Positions 1,935 to 11,519 of a stretch of 64,000 bases of DNA are shown in pieces. Each line of letters opens with the position of its first letter. Within the stretch, counting starts at the first letter, position 1. The stretch covers positions 140,205 through 204,204 of the forward strand of contig JAIEMQ010000015.1 of assembly GCA_019752015.1 (NCBI GenBank). The letters are read 5' to 3'. Position numbers and translations under genes: made by a program. The notes beneath the pieces are model-generated. The model saw only the letters and a list, made by a program, of their open reading frames with translations, ran no database searches and had not been told where the DNA came from. This DNA is from Cyanobacteriota bacterium (GTDB lineage: Bacteria > Acidobacteriota > Vicinamibacteria > Vicinamibacterales > UBA2999).

Positions 1935-3195
1935 CGGTCTCGACGTGCGCGGTGTGCGGAAAGAGATCGAACGCGCGCATCGACGACAGGCGATAGCCCG
2001 CATCCAGCAAGACCCGCGCATCGCGCGCCAGCGTGGCGACATCACACGACACATAGACGAATCGCGGCGCCTCGACGGCAATCGCGCGCTCGAGCGCGTC
2101 CTTGGACATGCCGGTGCGCGGCGGATCCACGATCACCGTCGCGATCGGCTGGGCCGAACCGGTGCTGAACTCCTCCACTGGAATCTGCAGGACCGTGATT
2201 CGACCGGCAGCGTTGCGCTTCAGATCGCGCGCCGCGAACCGATCGCCTTCAACCGCGGCGATCGGGCCGGCGCCGGCGGTGGCCGCGGTCAGGCTGAATA
2301 TGCCGACACCGGCGTAGAGATCGACCAGCGGGCCGGTCGAGACGTGACTGAGGACGTGATCGACGAACGGCGCGAGCAGATAACGGTTGCCCTGGAAGAA
2401 CGAGCGGACGTGACGGCTCAGCGTCACGCCGCGAATCGTGTCCGAGACGATCGTCGATCCGAACAGCTCCATGGTCCTGGGGTTTTCCGCGTGCGCGCAC
2501 GACGCGCCGCCGACGCCGTCGACGTACGCCAGCGCCGCCAGCCCCGACGGATCGGCATCGGGCAATAACTCGAAATGGATGGCGCGCTCCGAGGCGTCGA
2601 CGTTCTCGGCGATCTCGATGTCGCCGACCACCGGCCGTGCCGTCTTCGCGAGCGATGCTTCGAGGCGCCGGATCACAGCGATCGTGTCGTCGCGCAGCTG
2701 CCGCGTTGACGCAGCGTCGCAAATCGAGTGCGTCCCTTCGCGGAAGAAGCCGATCCGGCCGTTCCGCACGTGGAGCCGCGCGCGCATGCGATAGCCGTCC
2801 ACGCCGGACGCCACCACTTCGACCGGCGACTCGAGCGTGATCCGCCCGATGCGCCGGAACGCATCCTCGATGATTGCGCTTTTAATCTGGCGCTGCCGAT
2901 CGTAGGCAATGTGCGCGAAGACCGATCCGCCGCACGCGCCTTCCGGCGCATCGACGCGATCGGCCGAGCGCTCGACGATCTGCTTCGTCGCGGCCCACAC
3001 CGTGGCGCGCTGCACCTTCTCGACTTCGGCCTCGATGACTTCGCCCGGAATCGCGCCCGACACGAATACGATCGCGCCTTCATGCCGCGCGATCATGCGG
3101 CCGCCGGCGGCCGGCCGCTCGATCGTCAGTCGATAACGTTCGCCGCGCTTCACGGGAACTCTGGCAGGCCAAAGTGCCGGCGCACGACGAGCCAT
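1915..3195 (-). CDS. SAM-dependent RNA (uracil-5)-methyltransferase, TrmA/RlmD family
   Basis: VDLYAGVGIFSL, VIVDPPRTG, YVSCDVATLARD, FDLFPHTAHVE. The start is uncertain because the ORF overlaps the upstream ORF end by 46 nt. Confidence 0.85.
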   Translation of the reverse strand: MARRAPALWPARVPVKRGERYRLTIERPAAGGRMIARHEGAIVFVSGAIPGEVIEAEVEKVQRATVWAATKQIVERSADRVDAPEGACGGSVFAHIAYDRQRQIKSAIIEDAFRRIGRITLESPVEVVASGVDGYRMRARLHVRNGRIGFFREGTHSICDAASTRQLRDDTIAVIRRLEASLAKTARPVVGDIEIAENVDASERAIHFELLPDADPSGLAALAYVDGVGGASCAHAENPRTMELFGSTIVSDTIRGVTLSRHVRSFFQGNRYLLAPFVDHVLSHVSTGPLVDLYAGVGIFSLTAATAGAGPIAAVEGDRFAARDLKRNAAGRITVLQIPVEEFSTGSAQPIATVIVDPPRTGMSKDALERAIAVEAPRFVYVSCDVATLARDARVLLDAGYRLSSMRAFDLFPHTAHVETVIAFSR

Positions 3196-3926
3196 TGGGC
3201 CTGACGAAGCGCCTGCTGGTACGCCTGCTCGGGCATGCGGCCACGGAATGGCTCGAGCTCGGCATCGGCCTCGCGGTTGAGCGCGGCCCGCTCGGCAGCC
3301 TCGAGCGCTTCGAACGTCGCGACCATCAGCGCCGCTTCAATCTCCGAGGTTCGCAGCAGCAGCTGATCGCGCGCGTGCCCCCGGGCGCTCGCCGCTTCAG
3401 GACGCAGCGCATCAAGGGCGCGCACCGCCGCGTCGAGCGCGGCGCCCAGTTTTGGGCCCGCCTTGTCGCTGCCGCGCAGCACCGTCAACCGCGCCAGCGC
3501 GCTTTCGATTTGCGCGCCGAGCGACCGCCGCCCGCGCGTGGCCGGCTGCGGATCTTCGACATCGGGCCCGCCTGCCGCATCCGGCGCAATGTTCGTCACG
3601 CCAACGGCGCGGCGCCAATCGTCGAAGGCATCGAGCACGTCGGCCTCGCAGAATTCAATGCGGACCGGGCGACGACGCGGACCCTTGCGGTAGTAGCGCT
3701 CGAAATAGCGATCGATGCCGGCCTCAGCGACTTTCAGCGGCACGCCCTGGATCGCCCAGCCTTGCACCTGCTCGAAGGCCGGCCCGGTGATGCGGATCAA
3801 ATGGCCGTCGTTTTTCTTGCTGAGATACGCCTCGAGATTGCGGGCGTACGATTCGACATCGATCACTGTTTGGATGACTGCCTTGAATCGGTGGATCGTG
3901 AATCGGTGGCTTGGCGTTCCCACCAA
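3150..3926 (-). CDS. hypothetical protein
   Basis: 258-aa ORF in the same-strand gene chain between coaX and the methyltransferase. No motif recognised. The start is uncertain (overlaps the coaX 3' end). Confidence 0.5.
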   Translation of the reverse strand: MVGTPSHRFTIHRFKAVIQTVIDVESYARNLEAYLSKKNDGHLIRITGPAFEQVQGWAIQGVPLKVAEAGIDRYFERYYRKGPRRRPVRIEFCEADVLDAFDDWRRAVGVTNIAPDAAGGPDVEDPQPATRGRRSLGAQIESALARLTVLRGSDKAGPKLGAALDAAVRALDALRPEAASARGHARDQLLLRTSEIEAALMVATFEALEAAERAALNREADAELEPFRGRMPEQAYQQALRQAQWLVVRRHFGLPEFP

Positions 3927-6250: not shown

Positions 6251-8872
6251 TTACGCCTTGTCCACCGTAGACGGGGCGGACTCCGCGGGTTTAAGCGTGA
6301 CTTCGACGGAGGTTTCACCGGCGCGGAGAATCAACGATTCAGATCTCGATGCCGCTTTCAGGTCGCGCTCGATCAGCTTCAGGCATGCGATCGCATCATC
6401 GGGCGCTTGATAGACCACTTCACGCACGGGCGTGCCGACCGACACCTTCTGGTCGGTCTTGCCTTTGCGGATCGCATTCAAGGCCTCGGTCGCGTGAACG
6501 ACGGCATTCGCCGATGCCTGGTCGGTGCCTGACACGCTGATGAGCTCGTCTCGCGTCGGCCACGTCGCGCGGTGGATCGATCCGGCATTGGTCCACGACC
6601 ACACTTCGTCGGTTACGAATACGAGATACGGCGCGAGCAGACGCAACAACACCGACAACGCCAGCCGCATTGCCGTCGATGCCGACGCCGCCGGCCCGGG
6701 ACCGAAGTCGCCGTAACGGCGTGACTTCGCCGCCTCGACGTAGTTGTCGCAGAAGTCCCAGAAGAACGACTCGACCTTGGCGAGCGCCTTTGCGTATTCG
6801 TATCGCTCCAGCTCCGCAGTCGCTTCATCCACGACGAGCGCGAGGTTCTGCAACATGCCGCGATCGAGCGGCTCGGTGACCGGGCCGTCCGGCTGATCCC
6901 CGGCCAGCACGAACTTCGACACGTTCAGGATTTTGATCGCCAGCTTGCGGCCGATTTTCATCTGGCCCGGGTCGAACGCCGTATCGACGCCGGGGCCGCC
7001 GCGCGCGGCCCAGTAGCGCACGCCGTCGGAGCCGTGCTCCTTCAACAGCGCCATCGGCGTCACGACGTTGCCCTTCGACTTCGACATCTTCTTGCGATCG
7101 GGATCGAGGATCCATCCGGAGATCGCCGCGTTGGTCCACGGCACCGAGTTGTTCTCGAAATGCGCGCGCACCACCGATGAGAACAGCCACGTGCGAATGA
7201 TGTCGTGCGCCTGCGGCCGCAGGTCCATCGGGAAGGTCCGCGAGAACACGTCGTCGTCCGACTCCCACTTGGTGACGATTTGCGGCGACACCGACGATGT
7301 GGCCCATGTGTCCATGACGTCCGGATCACCGGCGAAGCCGCCGGGCCTGCCGCGCTGGTCCTCGCGATAGCCGTCGGGCGCCTCGGTGGACGGATCGACC
7401 GGCAGCCGCGATTCATCCGGCACCATCAGGTTGGCGTAGTCAATGCTGCCGTCGGCGCGAATCGGATACCAGACCGGGAACGGCACGCCGAAGAAACGCT
7501 GTCGGCTGATGCACCAGTCGCCATTGAGGCCGTTGACCCAGTTCTCGAATCGCAGCCGCATGTGCTCCGGGTGCCAGCTGATCTCGCGGCCGCGCGCGAT
7601 GAACGCCTCGCGATGGTCCATCGTCTTGATGAACCACTGGCGGCTGGTCACGATCTCGAGCGGACGATCGCCCTTCTCGTAGAACTTCACCGCGTGGGTG
7701 ATCGGTTTCGGATCGCCCTGCAGATCGCCGCTCTCGCGCAGCAGCTCGACGATCTTCGTCTGCGCCTTCTTCGTGGAGAGCCCGGCGAGCTGGTCGTAGG
7801 CGGCCTGCGCCTTCGCGGCGTCCGCGGATTCCCAGCCGGCGGTTCCCCACGTCACCGGACCGAGTGTGCCATTGGTCTGCACGATTGCGCGCACCGGCAG
7901 GCGCAGCTCGCGCCACCACGTCACGTCGGTGGTGTCGCCGAAGGTGCAGATCATCGCGATGCCGCTGCCCTTTTCCGGATCGGCCAGCGCGTGCGCCTTG
8001 ATCGGCACGCGCGCGCCAAACAGCGGCGTGATCACATACGTATCGAATAGATGCTGGTATCGCGCATCATCAGGATGAGCGACCAGCGCGACACACGCCG
8101 GAATCAATTCGGGCCGCGTCGTTTCAATCGCCACCGGCTCCCGGTTCCCGGCTCCCGGCTCCCGGTAAAAATGAATCTTGTGATACGCGCCCGGTTGCTC
8201 ACGGTCTTCAAGCTCTGCCTGCGCGACGGCGGTCTTGAAATCCACATCCCACAACGTCGGCGCTTCAACCTGGTAGGCGAGCTTCTTCGCGAGGTGACGC
8301 AGGAACGTGATCTGCGACACGCGCTGGGCGTCCCTGCCAATCGTCGCGTAGGTCATCGACCAGTCGACCGACAGCCCGAGATAACGCCACAACTCTTCGA
8401 ACGCCTTTTCGTCCTCGATCGTCAGCTTCGTGCACAGCTCGATGAAGTTCGGGCGTGATACGGAGATCGGCTTGTCCGGTTTCTCGCCCCTCGACTCCGC
8501 TCGGGGCGACCCTGAGCCCGTCGAATGGGTCGGCGGCGTGAAGTTCGGGACGTACGGCAGCGACGGATCGCAGCGGACGCCGAAGTAGTTCTGCACGCGG
8601 CGCTCGGTCGGCAGGCCGTTGTCGTCCCATCCCATCGGATAGAACACTTCCTTGCCGCGCATGCGCTGGAAGCGCGCAATGAAATCGGTGTGCGTGAACG
8701 AGAAGACGTGACCGACGTGCAGCGAGCCGCTGACGGTCGGCGGCGGCGTGTCGATCGAGTAGATCTGCTGCCGCGACCTGGTGCGATCGAATCGATAGGT
8801 GCCGTCGCGCTCCCAGCGCGCGGCCAGAGCGTCTTCGAGGCCCTCTAACGCGGGCTTCTCGGGAACAGGCAT
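6251..8872 (-). CDS. valS: valine--tRNA ligase
   Basis: PPPTVSGSLHVGHV (HIGH) and KMSKSKGN motifs, 873 aa. Contains two repeat-derived in-frame insertions (see findings). Confidence 0.95.
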   Translation of the reverse strand: MPVPEKPALEGLEDALAARWERDGTYRFDRTRSRQQIYSIDTPPPTVSGSLHVGHVFSFTHTDFIARFQRMRGKEVFYPMGWDDNGLPTERRVQNYFGVRCDPSLPYVPNFTPPTHSTGSGSPRAESRGEKPDKPISVSRPNFIELCTKLTIEDEKAFEELWRYLGLSVDWSMTYATIGRDAQRVSQITFLRHLAKKLAYQVEAPTLWDVDFKTAVAQAELEDREQPGAYHKIHFYREPGAGNREPVAIETTRPELIPACVALVAHPDDARYQHLFDTYVITPLFGARVPIKAHALADPEKGSGIAMICTFGDTTDVTWWRELRLPVRAIVQTNGTLGPVTWGTAGWESADAAKAQAAYDQLAGLSTKKAQTKIVELLRESGDLQGDPKPITHAVKFYEKGDRPLEIVTSRQWFIKTMDHREAFIARGREISWHPEHMRLRFENWVNGLNGDWCISRQRFFGVPFPVWYPIRADGSIDYANLMVPDESRLPVDPSTEAPDGYREDQRGRPGGFAGDPDVMDTWATSSVSPQIVTKWESDDDVFSRTFPMDLRPQAHDIIRTWLFSSVVRAHFENNSVPWTNAAISGWILDPDRKKMSKSKGNVVTPMALLKEHGSDGVRYWAARGGPGVDTAFDPGQMKIGRKLAIKILNVSKFVLAGDQPDGPVTEPLDRGMLQNLALVVDEATAELERYEYAKALAKVESFFWDFCDNYVEAAKSRRYGDFGPGPAASASTAMRLALSVLLRLLAPYLVFVTDEVWSWTNAGSIHRATWPTRDELISVSGTDQASANAVVHATEALNAIRKGKTDQKVSVGTPVREVVYQAPDDAIACLKLIERDLKAASRSESLILRAGETSVEVTLKPAESAPSTVDKA
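8134..8165. repeat. CCGGYTC heptamer tandem array inside valS
   Basis: ccggctc ccggttc ccggctc ccggctc ccgg read directly. Translates to EPGAGNREP on the minus strand. Confidence 0.9.
8486..8528. repeat. 42-nt REP-like imperfect palindrome inside valS
   Basis: cccctcgactccgctcggggcgaccctgagcccgtcgaatggg. Near-identical copy at 38666..38707 and a half copy at 30476..30495. Confidence 0.85.
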
Positions 8873-8883
8873 CCCTTTATTAT

Positions 8884-8978
8884 GGAAGGCAAAAGGCAGA
8901 AGGCAAACGGCAAAAGCACTTCCACCCTTCCCTTCTGCCTTTCGCCTTCTGCCTTTCGCCTTATGCCTTGTGCCTTTG
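8884..8978. repeat. long imperfect palindrome built from GGCARAAG-type short units, overlapping the stop codon of 8961..11519
   Basis: Left arm ggaaggcaaaaggcagaaggcaaacggcaaaagcac. Right arm ccttctgcctttcgccttctgcctttcgcc is its approximate reverse complement. Confidence 0.8.
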
Positions 8979-11519
8979 TTTTATGCGATCGATTTCGTCG
9001 CGCACGAGGCGCTCGGAGGTATCGGAGACGACCGAGCGAACGTTGTCGCGGATCAAGCGTTCGGAGGTTTCGGCCACCACGCCGGGCACGGTGTCGCGCA
9101 CCATTCGCTCCGAAGTGGCGGCGACGACGCCGGGCACGGTGTTACCAACGAGCCGCTCCGACGCTTCAGCAACCGCTCCAGGAACGGTATCGCGTACCAG
9201 CCGCTCGGAGGTCTGGGTGACGATCGCGGGCGTGGCATCGCGCACCAGCCGCTCGGACGTTTCAGCAACGACGGCGGGGACGACTTCACGCACCATGCGC
9301 TCGGACGTTTCAGCGACCACCATGTTGACCGTGTCGGAGACGACGATCGCCACGGTATCGCGAACCAGCCTCTCGGACGTTTCCGAGACGACCGCGGGCA
9401 TGGTTTCGCGGATCAGGCGCTCGGACGCTTCCGCCACGGCCGACGACACGGCGTCTCGCACCAGCCGCTCGGACGTCGCGGGGACGTTGGTTCGCACCGC
9501 ATCGCCGACCAACCGCTCGGAGGCTTCGTGGACGATCGACTGGACACTGTCGCGAATCAGACGCTCGGATGCCTCGGGCACCACCGATTGCACGCTGTCG
9601 CGGATCAGCCGCTCGGACGCTTCAGGAACAATCGCCTGGATGCTGTCGCGGATCATTCGCTCCGATGTTTCGGGCACGACGAATTGAACGGTGTCGCGAA
9701 TCAACCGCTCGGACGCCTCCGGCACGACCGTCTGAATCTTGTCGAGAATCAGCCGTTCTGAGGCTTCGGGCACGACGGTCTGAACCGAATCGCGGATCAA
9801 CCGCTCCGATGTTTCCGGCACGATCGACTGGACGCTGTCGCGGACCAGCCGCTCCGACGTTTCCGCGACGACGCCCGGCACCGTCTCGCGCACGACGCGT
9901 TCGGACGTTTCGGCGGCGACCCCCGGAACGGTGTCACGCACCACGCGCTCGGAGGCTTCGGCGACGACGCCAGGCACCGTGTCGCGGATCACCCGCTCTG
10001 ACGTTTCGGCGACGACACCCGGAACCGCATCGCGAATCAAACGCTCCGACGTTTCGGCGACGACCGTGCGAACCGTCTCGCGCATTGTCGTCGTCATCGC
10101 GTCCTTGAGGATTGCGCCAAACGTGCTCGCGTTCAGCCGATCGGCCACACGCGTGGCGATCTGATCGAGCATGGCGTCGGTGATCTTCGGCTCGACGATC
10201 CTGATCTCCGGCGGCGGCGGTGCCGGCGGATGCGCGCGCTCGCCACGCTCGAATGCCAGCAATGCATCGAAGTCGTCGGCGACCCTGGTCTCGACGGGCG
10301 GCGCCGGCGGCGCAGCGGTCACGCGCCTGATCGGCGCAACGGTCACGGGCGGCACAATCGGCGCCACCGGTTTTGGCGGAGCGGCAACGGGCGGCGGCGC
10401 GACCGGCGCGCGTTTCGGCAGCTCGGTTTTCACCGGCGCGGGCGCGGGCGGAAGTGGCGCGGGCGGTGCCGGCGGCGCCTGCGCCGCGGCGGCCTTGATG
10501 TCCTCGAGGCCGAAATCGAAATCGCGATCGGTGGCCGCCGGCGCGATCGGTTCCGATTCAGGAAGCTCGACCTCGTGGATGCCCATTTCCTTCGCGAGCT
10601 GCGCCTGCTCGACCTGTCTCGCCGCGCGAGCCTTGTCGTCTTCCGCAAACCACTCGTCGTCGACTTCGAAGACGCCGCTGGTCGGCGGTTTCGGTGGCGC
10701 CGGCGGCGGCTGAATTTCCGGATCGCTCAGGTCTTCGGCAATCTCGCGGCGGCCGGCTTTGGCTTCCGCGCGCGCCTGGCTCTCGGCCGTGCCGAACCAG
10801 TCGTCATCGACTTCGAAGACGGGATTGCCGGTGGCGCTGCTCGCCGTCGGTGGCGTGCGTCCCGGCGATCGCGGATCGATGGCGCCCCCTGCCTGCCCGA
10901 TGGGTCCGGAAGGATTGCGATTGGGCTTGGACGCAGGCGTCCGGCCCGAGAGCTGTTGATCGAGGGAATCAAACGCCTCGTCGAGCGTATCGAGATAGTC
11001 GGCAGGCTTCGGCGCGGACTCTTCGACGGAGGACACCGGCGCGGGCCGCGCGGACGTGGCTGGGCGCGCTGGCGCGGCCGCGGGGAGCTTCCTCTCCGCG
11101 GGACCGTCCACTGGCGTCACCGGACGGCCGGCCGAAGCCGGTTTCTCGTCGGATTTCATGCCCAGCAGTTCTTTCACCCGGCTTCTCACCACCGTCGGCT
11201 CGACCGGCTTCTCGAGCACGCCGTTCGCGCCGCTCGAGGCCAGACGCGCCTCGTCCACCGTCTCGAACGCGCCGGTCAGCAGCAGCACCGGCACCCGCCG
11301 CAACTCCGCCTTGCCGCGCATGAACTTGGCGAGGTCGTAGCCGCTAATCTGCGGCAACGTCGTGCCCGCGAGCACGATGTCGGGTTGATGCGCCGCCATC
11401 TTCTCCATCGCCTGCTGTCCGTCGCCGACGGAGATGACCTTGATCGGCGTTTCAGCGAACGTCAACGCAATCACCCGCTGGACTGTGATGCTGTCGTCCG
11501 CCAGGAGAAGGGTGCGCAT
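8961..11519 (-). CDS. receiver (CheY-like) domain protein with a Pro-rich linker and about 22 C-terminal 16-residue repeats
   Basis: N-terminus MRTLLLADDS...LLLTG...EKP has the REC pattern. The C-terminal 364 aa are E[TA]SER[LVM][IV]RD[TS]V..[VI]V. units. Confidence 0.85.
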   Translation of the reverse strand: MRTLLLADDSITVQRVIALTFAETPIKVISVGDGQQAMEKMAAHQPDIVLAGTTLPQISGYDLAKFMRGKAELRRVPVLLLTGAFETVDEARLASSGANGVLEKPVEPTVVRSRVKELLGMKSDEKPASAGRPVTPVDGPAERKLPAAAPARPATSARPAPVSSVEESAPKPADYLDTLDEAFDSLDQQLSGRTPASKPNRNPSGPIGQAGGAIDPRSPGRTPPTASSATGNPVFEVDDDWFGTAESQARAEAKAGRREIAEDLSDPEIQPPPAPPKPPTSGVFEVDDEWFAEDDKARAARQVEQAQLAKEMGIHEVELPESEPIAPAATDRDFDFGLEDIKAAAAQAPPAPPAPLPPAPAPVKTELPKRAPVAPPPVAAPPKPVAPIVPPVTVAPIRRVTAAPPAPPVETRVADDFDALLAFERGERAHPPAPPPPEIRIVEPKITDAMLDQIATRVADRLNASTFGAILKDAMTTTMRETVRTVVAETSERLIRDAVPGVVAETSERVIRDTVPGVVAEASERVVRDTVPGVAAETSERVVRETVPGVVAETSERLVRDSVQSIVPETSERLIRDSVQTVVPEASERLILDKIQTVVPEASERLIRDTVQFVVPETSERMIRDSIQAIVPEASERLIRDSVQSVVPEASERLIRDSVQSIVHEASERLVGDAVRTNVPATSERLVRDAVSSAVAEASERLIRETMPAVVSETSERLVRDTVAIVVSDTVNMVVAETSERMVREVVPAVVAETSERLVRDATPAIVTQTSERLVRDTVPGAVAEASERLVGNTVPGVVAATSERMVRDTVPGVVAETSERLIRDNVRSVVSDTSERLVRDEIDRIKQRHKA
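8964..10055 (-). repeat. in-frame 48-nt tandem coding repeat (about 22 units)
   Basis: Units counted in the translated ORF. The same periodicity shows in antisense ORFs 8799..9761 and 8968..9687. Confidence 0.9.

Follow-up and report, generated by a model that had tools for sequence, protein, structure and literature searches.

RomR, a response-regulator scaffold that marks the cell poles of Myxococcus and Bdellovibrio, is a central node of the best-studied bacterial polarity switch. Its receiver domain, which has D53, is joined by an unstructured, lineage-specific linker to a short C-terminal region (RomR-C) that is helical and Glu-rich, with an invariant Trp and an invariant Pro; the linker and RomR-C of the Myxococcus xanthus protein are each sufficient for polar targeting, and homologs have been reported in Acidobacteria (PMC3441718), as well as in Geobacter/Pelobacter, Deferribacterales and Aquificales. 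Residues 371–420 of RomR form a homotrimer that binds a dimer of MglC through W394 (PMC12719032). Here we describe a gene with a complete open reading frame (ORF) at positions 8961–11519 (minus strand) of a 64,000-nucleotide stretch, referred to throughout as the window, from a genome of the Vicinamibacterales (assembly GCA_019752015.1, contig JAIEMQ010000015.1, positions 140,205–204,204). The 852-aa product is RomR-like: its receiver lacks the phospho-acceptor Asp, its linker is disordered, and its tail consists of 16-residue units similar to RomR-C, repeated 22 times in tandem. From sequence and gene order we interpret it as a RomR ortholog whose receiver is aspartate-less and whose RomR-C has expanded; RomR itself is well known, and it is this arrangement of its parts that appears to be new.

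Receivers that match PF00072 and have no phosphorylatable Asp are termed aspartate-less receivers (ALRs), a subset of the pseudo-receivers that accounts for ~4% of all receivers (PMC12632262). The window receiver (residues 1–120; 11160–11519, minus strand) falls within the definition given in that 2025 review. Pfam Response_reg (PF00072) covers residues 5–115 with E values of 1e-15 to 5e-17, and the domain is modeled by AlphaFold2 (AF2) with predicted local distance difference test (pLDDT) scores of ~80–95. A first-pass annotation, made by reading the window without database searches, had proposed the 852-aa receiver-plus-repeat ORF and had placed Gly52 at the acceptor position by eye. The anatomy of the ORF holds, and profile tools give the same placement: phmmer aligns the domain without gaps to RR468 (3dge_C), a receiver from Thermotoga, setting PDIVLAGTTLP on PDLIVLDIMMP, with Gly52 (codon at 11364–11366, minus strand) opposite the phospho-acceptor Asp53, and an ungapped alignment to RomR likewise equates it with D53. 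The remaining active-site landmarks are all kept, including D8/D9, T82 with G83, K104 with P105, a Pro at D+4 and a Gly at D+8.

A protein search returned 569 matches at E ≤ 1e-5, and the acceptor and array tallies given here refer to the best 120 of these. The homologs come nearly all from metagenome bins of Vicinamibacterales/Acidobacteriota and carry generic names such as 'response regulator' and 'CheY-like chemotaxis protein'; labels assigned by JGI across the family are inconsistent and include CheY-like, OmpR family, YjiN/DUF445 and PopZ. The acceptor residue is Gly in 100 of the best 120, Ala in 13, Ser in six and Asp in one. A more distant locus (L016) encodes at the same position a ~380-aa protein with a canonical PDIVLADVGMP, and a search from this protein recovers a large sister clade of 350–400-aa proteins with the same layout, in which the receiver is followed by a Pro-rich linker carrying (S/T)WDP(E/D)L, then by SLVDAFAALLAAEQ, and at the C-terminal end by ITDEMIEEIAxRVLARLSDQxRPxILDVAERLVREEIERIK. 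All 119 scorable members of this sister clade have Asp at the acceptor position, and since they occupy the same locus, loss of the Asp is a derived state inside one orthologous group. Three close relatives with a common unusual tail ...SQEAAREDNVE (P0055, P0056 and P0059) have Ala, Gly and Asp respectively, encoded by GCC, GGC and GAC, which are single-nucleotide neighbors; this variation suggests either relaxed constraint or reversion at the acceptor site. The receiver of the Asp-less clade has also diverged faster than that of the Asp-containing clade, with mean identities to the RomR receiver of 38% (n=105) and 53% (n=98) respectively.

The three-part layout of the protein is that of RomR. 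Exact DNA matching of a published romR primer recovered five Myxococcus-type romR loci from metagenome contigs, two of which contain complete genes coding for 415 and 430 aa; their products end in ...REVIEKIAWEVVPQLAETIIREELERLIKDRETQH, consistent with the published positions of E390, K391, W394 and E402. The receiver of a sister-clade member (P0121) is 51% identical to that of RomR over 123 aa (127 bits, E 3e-37) and 58% identical to that of the window protein. The window receiver is itself 36–38% identical to the Myxococcus-type RomR receivers (95 bits, E 4e-25), compared with control identities of 30–36% to RR468 and scores of 64–69 bits for the best receivers in the PDB; the solved structures matched are generic receivers only, with no RomR entry among them. 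At the other end of the protein, the terminal unit and tail DTSERLVRDEIDRIKQRHKA (8964–9023, minus strand) represent the ancestral C-terminal helix found across the family and align with RomR ...AETIIREELERLIKD. A family C-terminal profile (A2) aligns by hhalign with RomR-C over 35 columns reaching the C-terminus (E 9.7e-5, probability 58%), with AWEVVPQLAETIIREELERLIK on RTVVAETSERLVRDEIDRIKQ, and a position-specific scoring matrix (PSSM) of the 16-residue units of the window finds its best RomR site at QLAETIIREELERLIK (shuffle p = 0.007). The third-ranked, lower-scoring match of the same PSSM, KASREVIEKIAWEVVP, lies exactly 16 residues upstream of this site, which hints that canonical RomR-C already has a 16-residue period, amounting to about two units.

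Gene order provides what we regard as the most decisive indication of RomR identity. In both complete Myxococcus-type loci (L018 and L020) valS (PRK14900, 1909 bits) and then nadC (TIGR00078) come directly after romR and share its strand, and the order in the window is the RomR-like gene, valS (alt_ValS; 6251–8872, minus strand, directly downstream), nadC, birA and coaX, the first three of which match. The valS–nadC chain had been described at first reading simply as the gene's surroundings; its members are as stated, but the association is not incidental, and belongs to an ancient romR–valS–nadC neighborhood that is also present in Myxococcus. The valyl-tRNA synthetases of the two neighborhoods are of different types, the window gene coding for an alt_ValS of 873 aa and that of L020 (2459–6331) being a PRK14900-type ORF of 1290 aa, with only ~26% identity, and the synthetase may have been replaced in place while the romR–valS–nadC order was kept. 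Taken together, the receiver subfamily, the same three parts, the RomR-C alignment and the shared gene order lead us to assign the gene as a divergent ortholog of romR.

The linker (residues 121–443; 10191–11159, minus strand) is intrinsically disordered as judged by composition, pLDDT and conserved columns. Residues 126–412 are 19.5% Pro and 18.1% Ala, and pLDDT is mostly <50, with helical islands at residues 172–190, 248–264, 288–311 and 413–424. It contains the short conserved helices or motifs DYLDTLDEAFDSLDQQL and VADDFDALLAFERGE, and the two FEVDD[DE]WF copies noticed earlier within this Pro/Ala-rich, low-complexity stretch are conserved in an alignment of 80 homologs. The first is FEVDDDWF at residues 235–242 (10794–10817, minus strand), and the second is FEVDDEWF at residues 284–291 (10647–10670, minus strand), which runs into the confidently predicted helix at 288–311; W290 and F291 are invariant in the alignment and W241 is at least 90% conserved. 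Linkers of C-terminally expanded members are longer than those of other members (334 versus 304 aa, p = 6e-4), a comparison made without phylogenetic correction that offers a hint only.

The C-terminal module begins with a helical segment at residues 444–488, PKITDAMLDQIATRVADRLNASTFG...TVRTVVA (10056–10190, minus strand), which is the part expanded in other lineages, and continues as the array (residues 489–848; 8976–10055, minus strand), with the consensus ETSERLVRDTVPGVVA and the character of an expanded RomR-C core. About 22 back-to-back units with one insertion had been estimated by inspection, and the count is 22 SER-anchored units, spaced 16 residues apart throughout except for a single 24-residue interval, where an 8-aa half-unit duplication (DTVNMVVA, residues 729–736; 9312–9335, minus strand) lies inside unit 15. 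Tandem Repeats Finder reports periods of 48 and 96 nt. S3, E4 and R5 are invariant in 22/22 units and are specified by three, two and five different codons respectively; the hydrophobic positions L6, V/I7, V11, V14 and V15 are kept in every unit, and usually a Pro or Gly as well. Between units the mean identity is 66% in nucleotides (range 46–83%) and 59% in amino acids, with synonymous (pS) and nonsynonymous (pN) differences of 0.58 and 0.25 and a pN/pS of 0.43, so that the array is, as the first-pass annotation had supposed, old and maintained. The longest exact repeat within it is 20 nt, and this together with the divergence of the units excludes recent slippage and assembly collapse.

The earlier observation that the repeat cannot be assigned to a named family also stands. 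Over the whole protein, the receiver is all that Pfam and NCBIfam recognize. Pfam searches of the array returned only repeat-driven noise, with Cornifin and Fibrinogen_BP below the cut-off, and every NCBIfam match was far below its cut-off. The avian yolk protein family Apo-VLDL-II (apovitellenin) scores 31 bits on the isolated array (residues 448–852) against a gathering cut-off of 23.4, with nothing passing in the full protein; this match is spurious, produced by the repeats, and could lead automatic annotation astray. An exhaustive search of 1.84 billion proteins with a two-unit profile gave 18 matches (E ≤ 0.001). Five of these are junk tandem ORFs without relation to the family; those full-length or domain-informative matches that were read belong to the same RomR-like family, and several of the others are very short. 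On the opposite strand, 'shadow' ORFs of 179–320 aa run across the array (8799–9761, 8968–9687 and 9569–10108, plus strand); they are themselves repetitive, are by-products of the GC-rich 48-nt periodicity, and could be mis-called as genes.

Most family members (among the best 120) are ~480–560 aa long and have one copy of the unit at their end, ...TVRSVVSETSERLVRDEIERIKSK, and a minority have arrays of 2 to >20 units; the window protein has the largest array among the best 120 of the 569 matches. Because most members are single-copy, the array arose in place, by multiplication of a C-terminal helix that the protein already had, and is not a fused foreign domain. The first-pass annotation had described repeats fused to a pseudo-receiver, and while both parts are real, the join is better explained by the expansion of a resident helix that matches RomR-C; that the 16-mer corresponds to the RomR-C core is moderately supported by the alignments above. 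Copy number ranges from 1 to 29 across relatives, with 19 units in P0002 and ~16 in P0007. The closest relative (L001), in which the neighboring genes are 94–95% identical to those of the window, has an ortholog of 1006 aa with 29 units; orthology between the two arrays extends to units 1–4, the final two units and the 8-aa insertion, and the interior has turned over, an edge-kept, interior-replaced pattern characteristic of unequal crossing-over where selection maintains the unit. Loss of the acceptor Asp is clade-wide (G/A/S) and independent of array expansion, since one 444-aa protein (P0365) has a canonical receiver (PDIVLADIDMP) together with an array of TAERLVRETVTEMVSK-type 16-residue units, and most Asp-less members are arrayless.

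Other lineages expand instead the neighboring ~29-aa unit PEITGEMLExxAxRVSERLxxSxPPPPEP, the first helix of the C-terminal module, to ~11 or more copies. Examples are the genes in L006 (8001–11360, 1119 aa) and L008 (8001–10754, 917 aa), as well as P0075, P0082, P0099, P0111 and P0118; four consecutive copies in L006, a long-read contig of >1 Mb, are identical, indicating very recent duplication. In two further contigs, both from the MFD MAG series, the ortholog is split into at least two ORFs (L012, 8001–10126, and L013, 8001–9658), and the neighboring genes of L013 are fragmented too; these splits are likely indel errors and not real pseudogenes.

We lean, with restrained confidence, towards the view that this divergent RomR ortholog acts as a polar scaffold with a multivalent tail for self-association or partner binding. 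With the acceptor Asp gone, the receiver would not be switchable by Asp phosphorylation and is most likely a fixed interaction module. In outline, the acceptor has changed from Asp to Gly (Ala or Ser in relatives) with the rest of the active site kept; the MglC-binding Trp of RomR-C has been lost, an invariant Arg taking its aligned position; and the 16-residue RomR-C core has been duplicated in place to give 22 helical units, each with its invariant S-E-R. By extension from M. xanthus RomR-C, the array may multiply a self-association or partner-binding helix and so form a longer, multivalent polar scaffold, with copy number as an evolvable dial set anywhere from 1 to 29 among relatives. A functional parallel is the unrelated scaffold PopZ, whose condensates solidify when helix valency is raised from 3 to 5, an effect that lengthening its disordered region offsets (PMC9512792). 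Anatomy, homology, gene order, selection on the units and variation in copy number are observed here; that the protein is polar, associates with itself, works independently of phosphorylation and responds to valency is what we infer, as we do function throughout, for hosts that are uncultured organisms.

Several observations weigh against this reading. The similarity to RomR-C is short and moderately significant (the hhalign probability given above, against a single-sequence template), and the window receiver resembles RomR only slightly more than it does a generic receiver, such that it is the sister clade and the shared gene order that carry the link to RomR. The C-terminal module and the array are entirely free of Trp, and in the hhalign alignment W394 of RomR falls on the invariant Arg of the family; with the Trp missing, MglC binding, which is the sole biochemically defined interaction of RomR-C, probably does not apply. 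P398 of RomR coincides with the Pro of the VVP-E[AT]SER units (7/22 units) and not with the terminal unit. MglA and MglB were not found by tblastn in the 64-kb window or the fetched loci, a result that is uninformative for the whole genome, and acidobacterial RomR homologs have been listed in genomes without a complete MglA/MglB pair (Keilberg 2012). Neither a tertiary nor a quaternary structure of the array is modeled with confidence by AF2: in the full-length model pLDDT is mostly ~70, falling to <50 in units 4–7 (residues 535–600), and a model of the array alone has a mean pLDDT of 50, is all helix and has no usable fold. In a continuous alpha-helix with a 16-residue period the hydrophobic face is calculated, at 100 degrees per residue, to turn by ~160 degrees per unit, making a simple coiled coil along the whole array unlikely; the units probably either kink at their Pro/Gly positions or pack on several neighbors.

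The only serious remaining alternative, which we nonetheless regard as unlikely, is that the array is a spacer or molecular ruler, a long, semi-rigid helical rod, stabilized like single-alpha-helix domains by i to i+4 salt bridges between Glu, Arg and Asp, that sets the distance of the terminal helix from the receiver and linker and contributes no extra binding sites. Long uninterrupted helices are predicted for the region, the best-conserved positions (E1, E4, R5, R8 and D9) are spaced i/i+4, and array length is free to vary among relatives while the terminal unit is always retained, all of which a ruler would accommodate. Single helices of the ER/K type, however, do not keep hydrophobic residues, and usually a Pro or Gly, in every unit as this array does, and the S-E-R that is invariant in 22/22 units looks like a specific contact motif, one shared with the terminal RomR-C-like helix.

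A second possibility is that the gene is decaying or drifting neutrally, with constraint relaxed after phospho-control was lost and the repeats tolerated as junk. The gene does evolve much faster than its neighbors (~50–78% versus 80–95% identity), the acceptor may be G, A, S or D and differs even within the closely related trio P0055, P0056 and P0059, and the receiver stands farther from RomR than in the Asp clade. Against decay, the ORF is intact in >100 homologs and occupies the same locus in the recovered relatives, the units differ at the pN/pS given above with three invariant residues written in varied codons, the receiver retains its DD, T and K as well as the Pro at D+4 and the Gly at D+8, and the linker motifs are invariant across 80 sequences. 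We therefore consider decay to be quite improbable.

It is very doubtful that the protein belongs to the PopZ family of pole organizers: JGI names three C-terminal family fragments 'cell pole-organizing protein PopZ' and the overall layout of a client-binding N-terminus, an acidic Pro-rich intrinsically disordered region (IDR) and C-terminal helices is similar (PMC9512792), but homology is rejected, as there is no PF10691/DUF2497 or NCBIfam PopZ match even at E ≤ 10 and hhalign against Caulobacter PopZ yields a probability of 0.7% and E 0.079, the link to RomR being far stronger. Equally hard to credit is a repeat count collapsed or inflated in assembly, for although tandem repeats are a classic source of misassembly and the exact window protein is not on record in other assemblies, the units are just 46–83% identical in DNA with a longest exact repeat of 20 nt, large-array orthologs occur in independent assemblies (29 units in L001, 19 in P0002 and ~16 in P0007), and the >1 Mb long-read contigs L006 and L008 carry equally large expansions of the neighboring unit.

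Going beyond the polar scaffold that we favor, RomR of this clade might have passed from a phosphorylation-switched to an assembly-driven mode, forming a multivalent condensate or a filament-lattice polar matrix whose material properties are set genetically by copy number and balanced by linker length, with FEVDD[DE]WF replacing the binding function of the lost Trp. We put this forward as a speculation and think it rather unlikely in this full form. Were RomR of this clade assembly-driven, it would be a natural counterpart of the engineered PopZ valency series.

The surroundings of the gene are well conserved. In 15 related Acidobacteriota/Vicinamibacterales loci, L016 among them, the order, where flanks exist, is gdh (on the opposite strand), the methylmalonyl-CoA mutase large subunit, its B12-binding subunit, the RomR-like gene and valS; a sixteenth locus returned (L015) was left out as an unrelated generic receiver match. 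Across these loci the mutase subunits, valS and gdh are 80–95% identical at the protein level and the RomR-like gene ~50–78%. The first-pass annotation had put the gene at the head of a same-strand housekeeping chain; valS, nadC, birA and coaX do follow downstream, but the gene does not strictly head the chain, since the two mutase subunit genes precede it on its own strand at a distance of 49 nt. None of these neighbors gives a clue to function, and the valS–nadC adjacency is informative only as an orthology marker. Between the stop codon of the RomR-like ORF (8961–8963) and the ATG of valS (8872) is a near-perfect RNA hairpin of ~30 bp (8886–8962, minus strand), built of heptamer repeats in which GGCGAAA/GGCAGAA pair with TTTGCC/TTCTGCC (-52 kcal/mol, z = -5.9 relative to shuffled sequences). 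It has no T-tract, is unique within the window, and is apparently genome-specific, since the gap is much shorter (~40 nt) in relatives, e.g. L001 and L007; it may be a terminator or attenuator, or a processing site. Farther downstream, a 258-aa ORF between coaX and a TRAM/tRNA-U5-methyltransferase gene (3150–3926, minus strand) has no Pfam match at E ≤ 1e-5.

The presence of orthologs with and without the acceptor Asp at one conserved locus offers a clean natural system for the role of ALRs, and the RomR-C series of 1 to 29 copies, together with the independent expansions of the neighboring helix, provides a means to test the effects of helix valency and linker length. In this sense nature has run an experiment on the number of binding-helix copies that one such scaffold can carry. 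The romR–valS–nadC arrangement, found across two phyla, can serve as a positional marker for divergent RomR orthologs that are missed by sequence searches, and naming the gene as a RomR ortholog puts right the labels found in databases, among them 'CheY-like chemotaxis protein', 'OmpR family regulator' and 'PopZ'.

Among described systems, the ALRs form a well-known class (Maule et al. 2015; J Bacteriol 2025 review PMC12632262) to which the window receiver is alike in its PF00072 match and its missing phosphorylatable Asp. It differs in that its clade keeps all other landmarks and replaces the acceptor with a small residue (G/A/S), where Glu is the commonest substitute elsewhere, and in having Asp-containing canonical orthologs as a direct sister clade at the same locus. 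With RomR (MXAN_4461 of M. xanthus; Bd2761 of Bdellovibrio) the window protein shares a receiver of the same subfamily (51–53% identity through the sister clade), an unstructured, lineage-specific, Pro-rich linker, a short alpha-helical C-terminus whose helix can be aligned (AETIIREELERLIK versus SERLVRDEIDRIK), and a gene position directly upstream of valS–nadC. The differences are the change of Asp53 to Gly, the absence of W394, the growth of a RomR-C core of about two units to 22 tandem 16-residue units, and a linker with two FEVDD[DE]WF motifs in place of PGPGMPP-type repeats; the partners MglA, MglB, MglC and RomX are established for RomR and only putative for the window protein. The tail of M. 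xanthus FrzS is a heptad coiled coil, unlike the 16-residue, Pro-punctuated repeat, and FrzS is not known to have a long Pro-rich IDR. The resemblance to FrzS, one of layout, lies in a non-phosphorylatable receiver followed by a long helical C-terminus in a pole-localized protein (PMC9811614). PopZ of Caulobacter crescentus is a functional analogy only, in that it too combines an interaction module, an acidic Pro-rich IDR and C-terminal helices that drive assembly; there is no detectable homology between the two, and whereas PopZ is conserved at three helices in nature, the RomR-like family extends from 1 to 29 units.

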